Origin: Candidatus Desulfobia pelagia
Lineage (GTDB): Bacteria > Desulfobacterota > Desulfobulbia > Desulfobulbales > SURF-16
Assembly: GCA_014382295.1 (NCBI GenBank)
Contig: JACNJZ010000045.1
Location: forward strand, 6,017-70,016
Length of the DNA: 64,000 nt
Direction: 5' to 3'
Below, piece after piece: positions 2,113-51,737 of this stretch; within the stretch, counting starts at the first letter, position 1, and the number at the start of each line of letters is the position of its first letter. The notes below the pieces were generated by a model, which ran no database searches, had not been told where the DNA came from, and saw nothing but the letters and a program-made list of their open reading frames with translations. A program made the translations under genes and the position numbers.

Positions 2113-2253
2113 ATGATCACCTCTTCGTTTAATTGAAAGTCTTACTTTTTATAATGAACTAACATTTTGATTGAAATTTTCTGCCTAAAACCAGACTTTC
2201 ATAATTTATAAAAACAGAAACGGCCAATATAGCCGCTTATAAGCAGTACCTTT

Positions 2254-2395
2254 GATGGCGTCGTAAAAAATCCGACCTACTGCGTTGTAGCAATTTTCCA
2301 GGCACTAGGCACACCATATGTATGGCCTCGCACTTGAAAAATTGCTACGCCTTGTATATCAAACTTTTTACCTAGCCATCCCGAGACTTTTTACG
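2254..2395 (+). repeat. Structured intergenic repeat, copy A (~142 nt); a second copy lies in reverse orientation at 30301-30454
   Basis: Both copies share the blocks GATGGCGTCGYAAAAARTCCGAYCTACTGYGTTG and CGCCTTGTWTATCAAACTTTTTRCYTAGCCATC...GACTTTTTAYG. These flank a central hairpin whose stem differs in sequence between copies but still pairs. The termini CGTAAAAAATC / GACTTTTTACG are mutually complementary. The repeat was first noticed because two spurious track ORFs share the peptide LRLVYQTF.LAI. Confidence 0.75.
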
Positions 2396-2524
2396 AGATT
2401 GTCACCTTTGACAACCTGTATTGAACGGCGCATTATCACGGGGTCCCGCAAATCCTGCGCTTATTTAACAGAGCAAAGTAACAAAAAATATTTTTGGAGG
2501 CAAGGAGAATCGACTCCAGGCCCA

Positions 2525-28246: not shown

Positions 28247-30037
28247 TCACATACTCGAAAACATCCAGACCAGGACAACAAAAACGCCACCGGCCATAAA
28301 AGATAAATAGCGCGCTATCTGACCATTCTGCATCCACCGTAATTTTTCTGCAAAGTAGCCGACAACCCGGGCCAAACCATCCACTACGCCATCAATACCA
28401 TGCCAGTCAAACCAGGACCAGAAGCGGGCTGTAATCATAAGCGGCACCATCCCAGCCACCCGATAGACTTCACTCCAGGCATTATCGAATGACTGAATCG
28501 GTTTTCTAGCAAACCACATGAACACCTTGCTCCCCTTGCGATAAAACCAGTCAAAATCGAGACTGATCACCACTTCCGGCGCCAGTTTCTTGACAAACAG
28601 GAAAAACCCCAGAGCTGTGAACAACAGTATCTGCATGGACTCGGAAAGATGATATGCCGTATACGGGTGGTAGTGAACCGGGTATGGCAACAGGTTATAG
28701 AGAAACGGAGTATAGCAGCCGATGAAAATACAGAAAAAGGCGGCCACAGCCATGGCAATCTCCATATTAACCGGCGGGTCATCCGCTTTCTCCCAGGTTT
28801 CCTCGCTACAGTTATTCTTGCCGAACCAAATAAAATAAGGGACCTTGAGGCCTGTGTGGAGAAAGGTTCCGGCAGAGGCCAAGGTCAGCAGGAAAGCAGG
28901 CCACATGAGATGCTCATGAAACCCCGCCGCCACGATCATCGATTTACTGACAAAACCTGAAAACAAAGGAAAGGCTGAAATGGAAAGACCTCCGATGAGC
29001 GTATACACAAATGTTCTCGGCATCTTTTTATACAGGCCGCCGAGATCACTGAATTTACTCTTGTCTGTCATAAACAGCACCGAACCGCAGCCCATGAACA
29101 ACAGCCCTTTATAAAGAATATGGGCAAAAGCATGGGCACAGGCGCCGTTAATAGCCATTTCGGTACCAATACCGACCCCGGCTACCATATACCCGACCTG
29201 ACTGATAATGTGGTAGGCAAGAAGTCGCCTGGCATCATTTTCAAGCACCGCGTAAACGACACCATAGAGGGCCATAATGACGCCGAGGGGGACGAGGATA
29301 TCCATGCCGGCAAAACCACGGGCCAAGGCATAAATGGCGGTTTTGGTGGTAAAGGCACACATGAACACGGCTCCGGCTACTGTAGCCTCCCCGTATGCAT
29401 CAGGCAGCCAGGCGTGTAACGGCGGCACTGCGGCATTCAAAATAAAACCGATCATAATGAGGTAAGTATACAAGGTGGGTGAATCAACTCCGATTGGACC
29501 GAAGGAAAGATCGCCCCCTGTGGCCTTATAGCGTAAAATCAGGCCGGCCAACAACACTAGTCCCCCAAAGGTATGAACCAGCAGGTAGCGATAACCTGCG
29601 GATATGGATTGTTTTCTGCCGCGAAACCAGACAAGGAAAACCGAAGAAAAAGCCATCAATTCCCAGAAAAGAAAGAGGACGATATAATCGGCACAGTAAA
29701 TGACCCCGAGGGAGCCGGCAACATAGAGCCACGCCGCGAAAATCTCCCTGATCCCCTTCGCGTTCATGCCGTAAACAGTACCGATAAGACACATCAATGT
29801 CATGATAAAGCCAAAAACATGGCTTAATCCATCTACCCTGCCAAAGGTAAGCGTCCAGTCCATAAACTGAATAACGCCGAAGGTACCCTTGGCCATTGTT
29901 AACACATTGATGAAAGCAAGCAGAGGCACCAGGAGCAGGTAGAGATTACGAATAACCCTGGGTCCACGCACAAAGGGCAGGAGCAAAGCCCCTATGATCA
30001 GAACAGCGGCTGGATGAATCCATAAATCAGTCATCAT
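28247..30037 (-). CDS. nuoL: NuoL-type antiporter-like subunit with C-terminal lateral-helix extension
   Basis: 596 aa. MrpA/NuoL-like core, plus the C-terminus ...FDWFYRKG...WHGIDGVVDGLARVVGYFAEKLRWMQNGQIARYLSFMAGGVFVV followed by a final TM. This matches the NuoL amphipathic-helix region (IDG.VNG....LR..QTG.....). Confidence 0.75.
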   Translation of the reverse strand: MMTDLWIHPAAVLIIGALLLPFVRGPRVIRNLYLLLVPLLAFINVLTMAKGTFGVIQFMDWTLTFGRVDGLSHVFGFIMTLMCLIGTVYGMNAKGIREIFAAWLYVAGSLGVIYCADYIVLFLFWELMAFSSVFLVWFRGRKQSISAGYRYLLVHTFGGLVLLAGLILRYKATGGDLSFGPIGVDSPTLYTYLIMIGFILNAAVPPLHAWLPDAYGEATVAGAVFMCAFTTKTAIYALARGFAGMDILVPLGVIMALYGVVYAVLENDARRLLAYHIISQVGYMVAGVGIGTEMAINGACAHAFAHILYKGLLFMGCGSVLFMTDKSKFSDLGGLYKKMPRTFVYTLIGGLSISAFPLFSGFVSKSMIVAAGFHEHLMWPAFLLTLASAGTFLHTGLKVPYFIWFGKNNCSEETWEKADDPPVNMEIAMAVAAFFCIFIGCYTPFLYNLLPYPVHYHPYTAYHLSESMQILLFTALGFFLFVKKLAPEVVISLDFDWFYRKGSKVFMWFARKPIQSFDNAWSEVYRVAGMVPLMITARFWSWFDWHGIDGVVDGLARVVGYFAEKLRWMQNGQIARYLSFMAGGVFVVLVWMFSSM

Positions 30038-30290
30038 AATAGTCCTCGCGAGTCATGATGCCAAGATGCCCGAACCACTTGGAAACAAAGATAATCAATG
30101 TACAGGCGACAAAGCCGAAGATAGACCACCACCCCGGGATATAATGCTCAACCCAGCTATGGGCATGGTGCTCCTTACCGGTTAAGCCGGGAATTATATC
30201 GATGATAACAAGGAGAGCAAGAACCCCGTAACAGAGTCTCACGGTCATCTTCATTCGGTCTCGGAAAAAATCAATAAATTGCACTATCAT
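30027..30290 (-). CDS. Small two-TM membrane protein inside the nuo-like operon (possible accessory subunit)
   Basis: The track ORF 30027..30386 is trimmed to M33 (MIVQFIDFFRDRMKMTVRLCYGVLALLVIIDII...WWSIFGFVACTLIIFVSKWF...REDYYDD). The first 32 codons are encoded by repeat copy B. A GGGAG sits 9 nt upstream of this ATG. The 3' end overlaps the nuoL start by 11 nt. Confidence 0.5.
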   Translation of the reverse strand: MIVQFIDFFRDRMKMTVRLCYGVLALLVIIDIIPGLTGKEHHAHSWVEHYIPGWWSIFGFVACTLIIFVSKWFGHLGIMTREDYYDD

Positions 30291-30300
30291 TTGGCACTCC

Positions 30301-30454
30301 CATAAAAAGTCATGCTGCAGCGCCCAGATGGCTAAGCAAAAAGTTTGATAAACAAGGCGCAGTGTTTTTAACAGGGATTTGATCATACATGTCGTATATC
30401 AAATGTCTGTCAAAAACCTGCAACACAGTAGATCGGACTTTTTGCGACGCCATC
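30301..30454 (-). repeat. Structured intergenic repeat, copy B (~154 nt, reverse orientation), inserted between two nuo-operon genes
   Basis: The reverse complement aligns with copy A (2254-2395) over both conserved flanks. The central stem GCAGGTTTTTGACAG / CTGTTAAAAACACTGC pairs but differs in sequence from copy A (GTAGCAATTTTCCAGG / CTTGAAAAATTGCTAC). Confidence 0.75.
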
Positions 30455-30455
30455 A

Positions 30456-31937
30456 TCATTGGGTCACCATATTAACAAAGGTCATCATAAAATCAGGATA
30501 GATACCTATAATTACAGAAATAATTGCGGCAATCATGAGAGGGATAACCATGGACAACGGAGCTTCCTTAATCCCCTCGTAGGTTTCACCCTCCGGTCGC
30601 TTGCCAAAAAAGGCCCGGTAGGTGACAGGAGCAAAGTAGGCGGCATTAAGCAACGTACTGGCCAGCAGAACAAGCAAAATACCGATAGAATGAGTCTCCA
30701 TTTCCATGGCTCCCACCAACAGCTTCCATTTGGTGACAAAACCGGCTACGGGGGGGGCTCCGATCATGGAGAGGGAGGCAATGCCAAAAGCAGCAAAGGT
30801 AAACGGCATAGTCCGTCCAAGACCGGACATTTCCGAAATTGTTTTTTTGCGGGTGGCAACATAAATGGCACCGGCACAGAAAAAGAGGGTTATTTTCGAG
30901 AAAGCGTGATTGGCAATGTGCACCAGACCACCCTCAATCCCATTGGGGGTCAGCAGTGCGACCCCCAGGATAATATAGGAGAGCTGGCTCACTGTGGAAT
31001 AGGCAAGCCGCGCTTTGAGATTATCCTTGGTAAGCGCAATTATCGAAGCCGTGATGATGGTAAATGAGACAAAGTACGCCGTGGGAACCCCAAGACCCAA
31101 GGCACTCATCTGGTCCGTGCCGAATACGTAAAGCATAACCCTGGTAGTGGAAAAAACTCCCACTTTTACCACGGCTACGGCATGAAGTAGCGCACTGACC
31201 GGGGTTGGGGCTACCATGGCACCGGGCAGCCAGTTGTGCACCGGCATGACGCCATTTTTTGCAAAACCGATGAGGAAGCAGATATAGAGGATAGTTACCA
31301 CTACACCATTCACACCGACAGGAATAATGCCGGTGTGAATATTGTCGGCAAAATCCAGACTGCCGGTCAGCACATAGATAAGAATCATTGCCGGCAACAG
31401 CAGCCCTTTAGCCGTTGTGGTCAGGTAGACAATGTACTTGCGGGCACCGGAATAGCCTTCTTCGTCCTGATGGTGGGCGACCAAAGGGTAGGTACAGATG
31501 GAAACAATCTCATAGAAAAGATACAGGGTAAAAATATTATCCGCGAAAGCAACTCCTATCGCACCAAAAAGAGAAAGGGCAAAACATGTATTAAAGCGCG
31601 TCTGGGCATGTTCCAGCAATCCCCGCATATACCCCATTGAATAAAATGCCGCCAGGATCCAGAGAAAAGAGGCGACAATGGCAAATATCATAGAAAATGC
31701 ATCAGCCCGAAAGGTAAGGGATAATCCGGGCAGCATGTCGAACAGTTGATATTTATATACATTACCAGCCATCACTTCGGGAACCATGGAAGCAATAACG
31801 CCAAACATACAGACTGCAGCTGCCACCGACCAAGACTCTCGGATATTCGGATTTTTGCCTGAAAGACTCACTAAAATGGCGCCAAACAAGGCGCACAACA
31901 TTGCAACTAAAGGTTTGCTCGATACAATGACTTCCAT
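30456..31937 (-). CDS. Additional MrpD/NuoL-M-type antiporter-like subunit (no lateral-helix extension)
   Basis: 493 aa. LTFRADAFSMIFAIV...FYSMGYM....RF...LFYEIVSICTYPLVAHH matches the proton-conducting membrane transporter family. It is a fourth antiporter-like gene in addition to M, L and N. Confidence 0.7.
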   Translation of the reverse strand: MEVIVSSKPLVAMLCALFGAILVSLSGKNPNIRESWSVAAAVCMFGVIASMVPEVMAGNVYKYQLFDMLPGLSLTFRADAFSMIFAIVASFLWILAAFYSMGYMRGLLEHAQTRFNTCFALSLFGAIGVAFADNIFTLYLFYEIVSICTYPLVAHHQDEEGYSGARKYIVYLTTTAKGLLLPAMILIYVLTGSLDFADNIHTGIIPVGVNGVVVTILYICFLIGFAKNGVMPVHNWLPGAMVAPTPVSALLHAVAVVKVGVFSTTRVMLYVFGTDQMSALGLGVPTAYFVSFTIITASIIALTKDNLKARLAYSTVSQLSYIILGVALLTPNGIEGGLVHIANHAFSKITLFFCAGAIYVATRKKTISEMSGLGRTMPFTFAAFGIASLSMIGAPPVAGFVTKWKLLVGAMEMETHSIGILLVLLASTLLNAAYFAPVTYRAFFGKRPEGETYEGIKEAPLSMVIPLMIAAIISVIIGIYPDFMMTFVNMVTQ

Positions 31938-50518: not shown

Positions 50519-51737
50519 GGACTTTCTGAATAATACAGATTTGAGGTCACAGTTTACAGATCAAGTGAAAATTTGAGTTTTTTTAATCAGAACCCACGAT
50601 CACAATCGACATTTTAAACTCAATTTTTTCTGTTTTGCTGCCTTTGTGCAGCGTTTTATAATTTATTTGCACCTTTTGACGGACTGCTCCTATTAAATCG
50701 GGGCCAGTAGTATTTTTTTTCGAACTCGAAACAGATTATAAAGCCCGAATAACAAATGTAATTGGCCTGCATTTTTCGCAAGGCCTCGGTAACGGGTTTT
50801 ACGATAGTTCCATTGGCATTTAATTACTTGAAAAGGGTGTTCGACAATAGCTCTTGCTCTTGAGAGTTTACGGTTTCTCTTTTCTTGGGAACTGGATAAG
50901 GGATTATTGCGACTCGCTTTGTCCAAGATTCCACAAAAGATGCCCTGCTTTCGAAGATCTCGTTTACGAGAAGAATTGAAGTAGCCTTTGTCGCCAAGAA
51001 TTGCTTTCTCCTCTCCATGCAGGAGTTCTTCAAACTGGCGTGTATCATGAATCTTGGCAGTTGTTGTGCTCAGGTTGTGCACCAGGCCTGACTTAGGATC
51101 AACACCGACATGGGCTTTCATCCCGAAGTGCCACTTGCCGTTTTTCTGGGTTGAACTCATTTCAGGGTCACGCTTGCCACTTTGATTCTTGGTGCTGGAA
51201 GGAGCAGCTATTAATGTCGCATCAACAGCAGTACCTTCTTTCATGAGCAGGCCTTTTTGTTCGAGGTGTTCATTTATTGTAGAAAGAATTTTTTCGAAAA
51301 GATTGTGTTTATGCAAGAGATTACGGAACTTGCAAACTGTTGTTTCGTCGGGCACTGACTCTGTAAGAATGTCGATAGATAAAAACTTTTGAAAGGAGTT
51401 TCTGTCGTAGATTGCATCTTCAACAGCGGGATCGGACAAATTGTACCACTCCTGAAGGCAAAGTATACGCAACTTCCTTTCTATATCAATGCGTTTTCTG
51501 CCGGTCTTTGGTTGTTTATGATATGGTTTTATAATAGCGCAAAGTTTCTTCCAAGGAACAACTTGGTCCATCTGGTTTAAGTATTTCTCACAACGAAGTG
51601 TTTTGCGATATAGTGCTATCGAAAGTAGGCTTAGCTGACTCATTTTACCCTCCGCATCATGTTTAACATGTTGAAATAATTATAAACTATGCGGATATAT
51701 TGTAACCTTTATTCTGAATAGTTTTTCAGAGGGTCCT
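50519..51737 (-). mobile_element. Intact IS5-family insertion sequence (~1.22 kb) with terminal inverted repeats and a 4-bp TTTA target-site duplication
   Basis: The left end is GGACTTTCTGAATAATA. The reverse complement of the right end is GGACCCTCTGAAAAACT (13/17 identical). TTTA flanks the element on both sides (50515-18 and 51738-41). It contains a single transposase ORF. Confidence 0.8.
50693..51643 (-). CDS. IS5-family DDE transposase
   Basis: 316 aa. The typical IS5 pattern runs from ...VPWKKLCAIIKPYH....GRKRIDIE..LRILCLQEWYNLSD to AVDATLIAAPSSTKN, HFGMKAHVGVD, ILGDKGY and RARAIVEHPFQVIK (DDE with Y-R-E region). Confidence 0.9.
   Translation of the reverse strand: MSQLSLLSIALYRKTLRCEKYLNQMDQVVPWKKLCAIIKPYHKQPKTGRKRIDIERKLRILCLQEWYNLSDPAVEDAIYDRNSFQKFLSIDILTESVPDETTVCKFRNLLHKHNLFEKILSTINEHLEQKGLLMKEGTAVDATLIAAPSSTKNQSGKRDPEMSSTQKNGKWHFGMKAHVGVDPKSGLVHNLSTTTAKIHDTRQFEELLHGEEKAILGDKGYFNSSRKRDLRKQGIFCGILDKASRNNPLSSSQEKRNRKLSRARAIVEHPFQVIKCQWNYRKTRYRGLAKNAGQLHLLFGLYNLFRVRKKILLAPI

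Follow-up and report, generated by a model that had tools for sequence, protein, structure and literature searches.

Repeats in the Candidatus Desulfobia pelagia genome probably belong to a family of small non-coding mobile elements with a long hairpin and a covarying central stem

Among the small repeated elements of bacterial genomes, Correia and RUP elements duplicate the dinucleotide TA, and roles in stabilising, insulating or processing mRNAs have been proposed for ERIC and Correia elements. The attC sites of integrons are recombined as a folded bottom strand, in a reaction that makes no target duplication. Transposition by HUH (Y1) enzymes, as in IS200/IS605, likewise makes no target duplication. 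In REPINs, inverted conserved arms enclose a spacer that is conserved in length and pairing; these elements show compensatory changes, and a single-stranded hairpin has been proposed as their intermediate (Bertels and Rainey 2011, PMC3116915). REPINs are associated with transposases of the RAYT (HUH) type; target-site duplications are not mentioned in the same paper (PMC3116915).

We analysed a structured repeat that an initial annotation had located twice, as copies A and B, in a 64,000-nucleotide stretch of the Candidatus Desulfobia pelagia genome (the whole stretch is hereafter referred to as the window). Both copies were found at the positions given there; when aligned, they have a mean column identity of 81%, with two strongly conserved blocks flanking a divergent centre. 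Each of the conserved blocks occurs exactly twice in the window, where dinucleotide-preserving shuffles lead one to expect 0.00–0.01 occurrences. A covariance model of 84 family members, run over the window with filters off, detected copies A and B alone (149.5 and 159.6 bits, respectively); palindrome echoes on the opposite strand scored about 57 bits, and the next unrelated match 9.5 bits. As had been described, the sequence of the central stem differs between the two copies while pairing is retained in both. Compared with shuffled sequences, the folds had z values of −4.0 (copy A) and −4.9 (copy B) on the strand drawn in the initial annotation, and of −7.1 (copy A) and −6.9 (copy B) on the complement strand. 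The start of copy A at 2254 was correctly placed, whereas its true right end is 2403, 8 nt beyond the proposed 2395. Complementary termini are indeed present, but in the predicted fold the left arm has its partner inside the element, in another copy of the right end (CAAACTTTTTACCTAGCCATC); the terminal GACTTTTTACG constitutes a second, outer right end. The two copies also have opposite orientations relative to local transcription, as claimed: copy A is antisense to recD and accC, and copy B is sense in an mrp/nuo-like operon. The features of the two copies are as follows.

2248..2253, + strand: left target-site duplication of copy A (ACCTTT); the identical hexamer lies directly to the right of the element
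2254..2403, + strand: copy A, complete element of the 150-bp class, GATGG...TTGTC; 149.5-bit covariance-model match over the full model
2254..2277, + strand: left terminal inverted repeat of copy A, end site L (GATGGCGTCGTAAAAAATCCGACC); inverted partner of both right-end sites
2284..2350, + strand: central stem-loop of copy A, a variable covarying stem with the conserved loop CATACCATATGTATGG; covariation in helices 3–5
2359..2380, + strand: inner right-end site of copy A (TCAAACTTTTTACCTAGCCATC), which pairs with the left end as helices 1–2 of the predicted folds
2385..2403, + strand: outer right terminal inverted repeat of copy A (GACTTTTTACGAGATTGTC); its reverse complement matches the left end
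2404..2409, + strand: right target-site duplication of copy A (ACCTTT), repeating the left hexamer
30455..30460, − strand: left target-site duplication of copy B (AATGAT); a single AATGAT stands in the empty sites L181 and L180
30292..30454, − strand: copy B, complete element of the 162/163-bp class; 159.6-bit covariance-model match; sense inside the mrp/nuo-like operon
30286..30291, − strand: right target-site duplication of copy B (AATGAT); supplies the ATG (30290–30288) of the downstream 87-aa gene

Using a 21-mer of block 2 (GCCTTGTNTATCAAACTTTTT), we searched for further copies in genomes that each represent one species. This gave 57 matching stretches, about 50 of them in Desulfobulbales MAGs (under the names Desulfobulbaceae, Desulforhopalus, Desulfopila, Desulfocapsaceae, Desulfurivibrionaceae and Desulfobulbia), with a maximum of 10 loci in one fragmented MAG. 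Four of the species-genome matches (Lysinibacillus, Muiribacteriota, Peptoniphilaceae and one Gammaproteobacteria genome) shared the 21-mer only, by chance; genuine copies were also present in a bin labelled as Gammaproteobacteria, and a second bin, labelled as Desulfobacteraceae, had a divergent form. At least 120 metagenome stretches matched a left-end 25-mer, and a scan of viral contigs added one further copy and one divergent relative; a search of the plasmid collection (blastn, distant mode) found no similar sequence. From all loci, 120 complete elements with different flanks were extracted. They fall mainly into size classes of 150, 161–163 and 179–180 bp, distinguished by the spacer that separates the inner from the outer right end. 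Since the search patterns fixed block 2 in loci L001–L057 and the left 25 nt in loci L058–L177, the conservation of these segments in the respective loci is partly due to ascertainment; the central stem was part of neither pattern. Genomes of Desulfobulbales and metagenomes of sediments commonly contain the family. The papers searched for MITEs in Desulfobulbaceae/Desulfotalea and for ISDol1 contained nothing on it, and it appears to be a so far undescribed MITE family of Desulfobulbales, although the kind of element is already known.

Every copy starts with GATGG(C/A)nTCGTAAAAAGTC and ends with GACTTTTTACGAGnnCATC, which is the start sequence inverted. The termini are thus inverted repeats of 19–24 bp (GATGGnnTCGTAAAAAGTC ... 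GACTTTTTACGAGnnCATC), and they are present in all size classes (left, GATGGCGTCGTAAAAAGTC; right end, reverse-complemented, GATGnnCTCGTAAAAAGTC). At most positions of the left terminal inverted repeat, at least 90% of 31 copies are alike; these 31 copies had been found via the other block, so that the conservation of the left end is not a product of ascertainment. One left end site (GATGGCGTCGTAAAAAGTCCGATC) is accompanied by two directly repeated right sites, the inner AAACTTTTTACTTAGCCATC and the outer GACTTTTTACGAGnnCATC, separated by a spacer whose length, according to size class, is 4 nt, about 16 nt or about 33 nt. The inverted left end, the inner right and the outer right site, each of about 20 bp, have the motif ACTTTTTAC-N3/4-(G)CCATC in common. 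All three resemble sites to which a transposase provided in trans would bind.

The left site is an inverted copy of the inner right site, with a central palindrome between them, and a single strand can therefore fold into a hairpin of about 130 nt. Repeated end sequences account for the pairing of helices 1 and 2, for which selection on the fold need not be invoked. Sequence is conserved in the loop (CATACC-ATATGTAT) and in the internal loops that stay unpaired. The G+C content is about 43% over the whole element; the arms, end sites rich in A+T and about 24 nt long, do not fold by themselves. The elements are non-coding: no ORF fits a transposase, and the ORFs that span an element are short, frame-dependent read-throughs. 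Further short element types carry the same termini on unrelated interiors, as expected if several passengers were moved by one transposase.

Most elements are bordered by direct duplications. In copy A, the duplication begins immediately past the outer right terminal inverted repeat. Among 117 elements with both flanks, an exact flank duplication of 6 bp was found in 59 and of 7 bp in 12, against about 0.06 exact 6-mers by chance. The duplicated sequence is locus-specific, being different at every locus, but its first base is nearly always A and its last T, a target preference of 5′-A-NNNN-T-3′, with GA following in 31 of 71 cases. A boundary model with TG...CA ends and a 4–5 bp duplication was rejected from the behaviour of non-consensus flank bases. 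When the inner four bases match, the base at the sixth position ahead of the element is A in 59 of 63 cases (background, 33%); and when a recognisable duplication has a flanking base other than A or T, the same unusual base occurs on the other side in 9 of 12 cases. Because these non-consensus bases are duplicated, they are part of the target and not of the element, which is GATGG...CATC.

An empty site was found for copy B, which stands between an Mrp/Nuo antiporter-like gene (493 aa) and a small gene downstream. Two NCBI assemblies encode homologues of the 493-aa protein, with 96% and 88% identity. Copy B is absent at the orthologous site in both of these relatives; the sites read GACCCAATGATAGT and GACCCAATGATCGT, and the two genes overlap there at ATGA. 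The window reads GACCCAATGAT, the 163-bp element (GATGG...GTGCCA) and AATGATAGT. Copy B is a precise insertion into the gene overlap, with AATGAT duplicated; the left AATGAT includes the TGA stop codon of the upstream antiporter-like gene (30456–31937). For copy A, no empty site was found: all contigs with an identical accC protein carry the element and share the same 413-nt spacer. Two syntenic loci, L015 and L027, carry independent insertions in opposite orientation; they were unusable as reciprocal empty sites, their intergenic regions being too diverged.

The best explanation, and in our judgement a highly probable one, is that the repeats are copies of a MITE, a family of small non-coding mobile elements, with a long hairpin. 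They are 150–180 bp long and non-coding, have terminal inverted repeats and target duplications, occupy many non-orthologous loci and are polymorphic in presence and absence. Of the three identities that the initial annotation had suggested, a structured MITE agrees with these properties, and a small RNA or a REP/BIME-like element does not. A transposase supplied in trans would act at the end sites. This enzyme may be a DDE-type transposase encoded elsewhere, and its staggered cut would give rise to the 6-bp (sometimes 7-bp) target duplication on insertion. The central stem would be kept if only hairpin-competent copies made new copies. The strand relevant for this would be the complement of the drawn strand, since it is there that the spread mismatches form G·T/G·U wobbles. 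A requirement for an internal hairpin is not normal for DDE transposition, and we infer that the selection operates at the level of propagation. TG...CA is the common terminal pair of DDE elements. The termini of the present element, GA...TC, count against the DDE reading.

No autonomous partner with the same termini was found in about 1 Mb of loci, in the window, in the plasmid collection or among viral contigs. Pairs of end motifs 0.6–4 kb apart, sought in all loci, gave candidates at L047 and L152, which enclose ordinary genes. An all-against-all comparison of ORFs for multi-copy proteins returned only regulators, ABC ATPases and similar proteins and no partner, and no transposase adjoins the truncated copies in L139, L073 and L157. 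The scan of viral contigs showed no IS. The sole transposase gene of the window (IS5 family, 50693–51643) was rejected as the partner, as its ends are unrelated.

To evaluate the covariation of the stem, we aligned 31 full-length copies with MAFFT; the RNAalifold consensus had 42 pairs, with 96% of the cells paired. Fourteen pairs were altered on both sides, in 77 cells, as compared with 22 ± 3.5 cells in shuffles (none of 500 as high) and 7–19 cells in slid controls. A second alignment comprised 84 copies from both scans, onto which the structure was transferred from the 31-copy alignment; RNAalifold applied directly to the 84-copy MAFFT alignment gave a poor consensus because the subfamilies were out of register. 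In the 84 copies, 19 pairs were altered on both sides, in 200 cells against 62.8 ± 6 in shuffles, and all five measures were above every shuffle (0 of 500). Helices 3–5 hold 16 of the 19 doubly changed pairs. At columns 45/88 the pairs UA, GC, AU and CG all occur, and the GTAG-like sequence at the base of the stem varies and covaries (GTAG, GCAG, GTGG). Within subfamilies (at least 90% identity), deviation from the subfamily consensus amounted to 2.6% in stem columns and 4.6% in unpaired columns of the hairpin (p = 0.0007). The covariation between copies is statistically solid, with 31 as well as with 84 copies, and upholds what had been read from copies A and B; the repeat is neither confined to these two copies nor devoid of covariation.

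The mismatches within helices 3–5 were unequally distributed between the strands. On the drawn strand, there were 62 A·C against 16 G·T cells, with one invariant T·G pair set aside (alignment columns 32/100), which runs against the bias; counted once per 90% cluster, the mismatches were 41 A·C against 16 G·T. The states found in at least two copies at different loci were A·C at 11 positions and G·T at 1, whereas private states were A·C at 6 and G·T at 12, a difference (Fisher p = 0.002) whose p-value, like any for this strand asymmetry, overstates the independence of copies related by descent. Each A·C of the drawn strand corresponds to a G·T/G·U wobble in the complement, and the complement is accordingly the more stably folding strand, in 87 of 94 copies with RNA parameters and in 78 of 94 with DNA parameters. 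In copy A, the fold has −60.3 kcal/mol on the complement and −41.8 kcal/mol on the drawn strand; in copy B, both strands fold about equally. Ten hairpin-less derivatives were identified, and none was seen multiplied, while the full-length classes have many members. The lengths of the ten are all different, which indicates that each is a dead-end deletion. These results are suggestive of a process in which copies that keep the complement-strand hairpin, wobbles allowed, stay able to spread, and they hint at a part played by a single-stranded hairpin in this spread. We take selection on the fold to be the most likely origin of the covariation.

The covariation of a MITE could also arise by template switching in the quasi-palindrome, with one arm copied from the other and a double change made in one step. 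Correction of quasi-palindromes is an established mutational process, and it would fit the rarity of one-sided G·U intermediates at most covarying pairs and the many transversions from one Watson–Crick pair to another, for example UA to AU or GC to CG. It also agrees with independent deletions that excise exactly the central palindrome between short direct repeats, and which show that, as DNA, the hairpin or cruciform promotes mutation. However, there are intermediates that have spread: 20 copies, of several subfamilies and at different loci, carry C·A at columns 35/98. Symmetric templating would not leave mismatches that are strongly strand-biased when spread (11 vs 1) and not when private (6 vs 12). 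Within subfamilies, moreover, stem columns are more conserved than unpaired ones. We therefore regard arm-to-arm copying as the source of the covariation as an account to be taken seriously, if an unlikely one; templated correction behind a part of the signal is a live alternative to selection on the fold.

In a more far-reaching reading, the hairpin would be a mechanistic requirement for mobility: the element would be recognised or processed as a folded single strand, the one with G·T wobbles at the spread mismatches, and a staggered duplication of 6–7 bp would nevertheless be made. This we consider quite doubtful. To our knowledge, structure- and strand-specific recognition of the HUH/attC type combined with a target duplication of the DDE type has not been described for bacterial MITEs. 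If the hairpin were truly required for movement, it would point towards a single-stranded step in a transposition pathway that makes duplications. The family offers hundreds of copies dated by their divergence, in which compensatory changes can be separated, with a strand signal, into those that have spread and those that have not. With its strand-biased compensation and three-site ends, it is a good system in which to ask whether a duplication-making element needs a single-stranded hairpin to spread.

The genomic surroundings of the copies bear on their effects on the host. Copy A is located between the stop codon of recD (2525) and the start of the biotin carboxylase gene accC (2112), on the strand opposite to its neighbours; a terminator-like hairpin (2238–2218) is nearby, with copy A between the recD stop codon and this hairpin, upstream of the latter. 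The copies in the window are solitary and dispersed, 28 kb apart and adjoined by housekeeping genes, and between loci both the flanking genes and the orientations vary. Of the 120 complete elements, two fall inside an ORF as called. Rickettsia palindromic elements insert into genes in frame; this was considered here too and rejected, the traceable read-through ORFs being start-codon extensions and not fusions. C-terminal extensions of some antiporter homologues, considered as read-through of the element, proved instead to be natural His/Pro-rich tails. Gene calling lengthens the 87-aa gene that follows copy B to 119 aa, its ORF extending back into the element, and two contigs end inside a copy or at its edge; the family breaks assemblies and misleads gene callers.

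In 14 cases, the upstream gene ends in a TGA composed of the last T of the duplication and the GA of the element; the other end of the element is used in this way in 3 cases. Locus L018 is a second case of insertion at ATGA. Read inward, the consensus ends contain a T|GA stop in one frame and TCG-TAA in a second. The stops at the ends, together with the target preference, allow insertion at stop codons and at stop/start overlaps without truncation or extension of the proteins, and the inward-reading stops at both ends limit the damage. Insertion at such sites inside operons spares both genes and illustrates how a selfish element can be nearly harmless. The insertions, placed between genes and in many cases precisely at a stop codon, look mostly tolerated by the host rather than useful to it.

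We regard as improbable that the repeat is instead a host RNA element, whose hairpin in the mRNA would stabilise, insulate or process transcripts and whose fold would be under selection at the level of the host. The copies do lie in transcribed intergenic regions (copy B in an operon), the fold is very stable as RNA, and the sense orientation is weakly favoured between co-directional genes (29 sense vs 15 antisense, p = 0.049). Yet the better-folding strand is the complement of the strand that is mostly transcribed in these co-directional contexts, and this preponderance of the weaker-folding strand among transcripts argues mildly against an RNA function in the host and for a step at the DNA level. 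Moreover, private mutations freely break pairs, insertions are polymorphic among close relatives, the syntenic insertions at L015 and L027 arose independently and in opposite orientation, and the same benefit would be needed at hundreds of unrelated loci.

Movement of the repeat as a single-stranded DNA hairpin by a RAYT or another HUH (Y1) transposase, in the manner of a REPIN/REP-like element, is very improbable. Conserved arms, a spacer of which only the pairing is kept and frequent compensatory changes match the design of REPINs (PMC3116915), and wobbles specific to one strand would fit an enzyme acting on single-stranded DNA. Against this, a locus-specific duplication of 6–7 bp is exact in 71 of 117 copies and borne out by an empty site, the arms differ from the short, G+C-rich palindromes of REPs, and the GTAG-like base of the stem varies and covaries instead of being fixed. 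A duplicated small-RNA gene or a riboswitch-like cis-regulator can be dismissed as scarcely credible: the structure is stable and covarying, and the left arm, with two alternative partners in the inner and the outer right site, might in principle operate as a switch, but the copies occur in both orientations beside genes that are unrelated between loci, and the target duplications and the empty site show mobility. Rfam gave no match in the 64-kb window at the gathering threshold and, at E ≤ 10 around both copies, only chance matches to eukaryotic miRNAs, snoRNAs and lncRNAs far below the thresholds; promoter and terminator scans identified no such site inside either copy.

Among described systems, IS21 family elements, Tn552, Tn7 and Mu resemble the Desulfobulbales MITE in that sites of about 20 bp are directly repeated at an end. 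Tn552 and the ISDol1 group of ISNCY make duplications of 6–7 bp, and ISDol1 comes from a Desulfobacterota host. In contrast to these systems, no such transposase is found near any copy of the present element, and its termini are GA...TC, not TG...CA; the papers mentioning ISDol1 that we found give no end sequences. The likeness may serve as a lead.

Correia/NEMIS elements of Neisseria, ERIC/IRU of enterobacteria and RUP of pneumococcus are like the present element in being 100–180 bp long without coding capacity, in having terminal inverted repeats, a target-site duplication and tens to hundreds of intergenic copies, and in their frequent co-transcription with neighbours and folding into long hairpins. 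Unlike them, the Desulfobulbales element has a 6–7 bp duplication with an A-NNNN-T preference, one left and two directly repeated right end sites, a documented covariation of the central stem with a strand bias, and Desulfobulbales hosts. With integron attC sites it shares a conserved structure of variable sequence and one better-folding strand; in contrast to attC sites, which stand in cassette arrays beside an integron integrase, its copies are solitary, dispersed and flanked by duplications. The element is not an attC site, a REP/BIME or an Rfam RNA. In behaviour, it is closest to REPINs, from which it differs in its 6–7 bp duplication, in its terminal inverted repeats of 19–24 bp and in arms that are A+T-rich end sites instead of G+C-rich REPs.

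Two syntenic loci from different genera each carry one copy of the MITE, a non-coding hairpin element of 150–180 bp, in the same intergenic region:

L015, 3687–3848, one copy
L027, 4288–4449, one copy

The flanking proteins are 62–83% identical between these loci; the flanks of the copies are unlike each other and their orientations are opposite, and thus the two copies are independent insertions.

The family is a mosaic. A module of 17–20 nt (CGATAAGCGTAGACTTCGAG or its reverse complement) occupies several differing positions within family members, the left end included. A further small module, CCCCGAGGGCAC...GGGGCG, is nested in some copies, and the small module TTCGACAAGCTCACGGCCCTGAGCAAAGTCGAAGGG lies within those of the metagenomic loci L060 and L160. 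Members with the 17–20 nt module or other nested modules include, among others:

L023, 1472–1652
L075, 2389–2583
L005, 2000–2200
L018, 1251–1381

Other short elements, of about 55–130 bp, have the MITE termini (GATGGnnTCGTAAAAAGTC ... CCATC) and unrelated interiors:

L051, 1650–1750
L001, 3830–3957
L012, 2545–2599
L186, 568–700
L190 and L191, a divergent relative with a different central hairpin

The elements frequently adjoin each other directly. Separately, the metagenomic locus L077 (~2374–2398, minus strand) holds only half an element, from the left end through the loop, with a 16-bp direct repeat, CTTTTTACTTACTTTT, on both sides, differing from the usual 6-bp duplication.

The window also contains a transposase gene:

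50693–51643, minus strand, 316 aa, DUF772 and DDE_Tnp_1 domains, IS5-family type

A search of the surroundings of this gene found no terminal repeat similar to those of the MITE; therefore, the gene probably represents an unrelated insertion sequence.

Two observations concern copy B and the gene that follows it:

window 30027–30386, minus strand (and L178, 4552–4911), small gene 3′ of copy B, 119 aa in public gene calls
window 30292–30304, minus strand, right end of copy B, ATGGGAGTGCCA versus the family consensus ACGAGnnCATCA

The call of 119 aa arises because the open reading frame extends backward into copy B. In insertion-free relatives the gene encodes 86–87 aa, starting at the ATG equivalent to window 30290–30288, and the longer call is an artefact of annotation due to the repeat. 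The insertion removed the original upstream context of this gene, and the right end of copy B creates a Shine-Dalgarno-like GGGAG 6 nt 5′ of the ATG. The departure from the consensus may be a compensating change for the downstream gene. Upstream of copy B, the antiporter-like subunit (window 30456–31937) is without the His/Pro/Gly-rich C-terminal tail (67–94 aa, THGAP-like repeats) of some of its homologues (P0017, P0018 and P0024), a tail that has no connection to the MITE.

Copy A is followed by a further hairpin:

window 2218–2238, minus strand, hairpin plus T-run, terminator-like, located between copy A and the start of accC

As this hairpin separates copy A from accC, copy A is probably inside the 3′ untranslated region of recD; the recD transcript would then bear the element's better-folding strand.

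Metagenome contigs from the same organism as the window end inside or at the edge of copies A and B:

L179, antiporter side, stops 29 nt past the antiporter gene
L185, accC side, stops 240 nt upstream of accC

As these contig ends show, the repeat fragments short-read assemblies.
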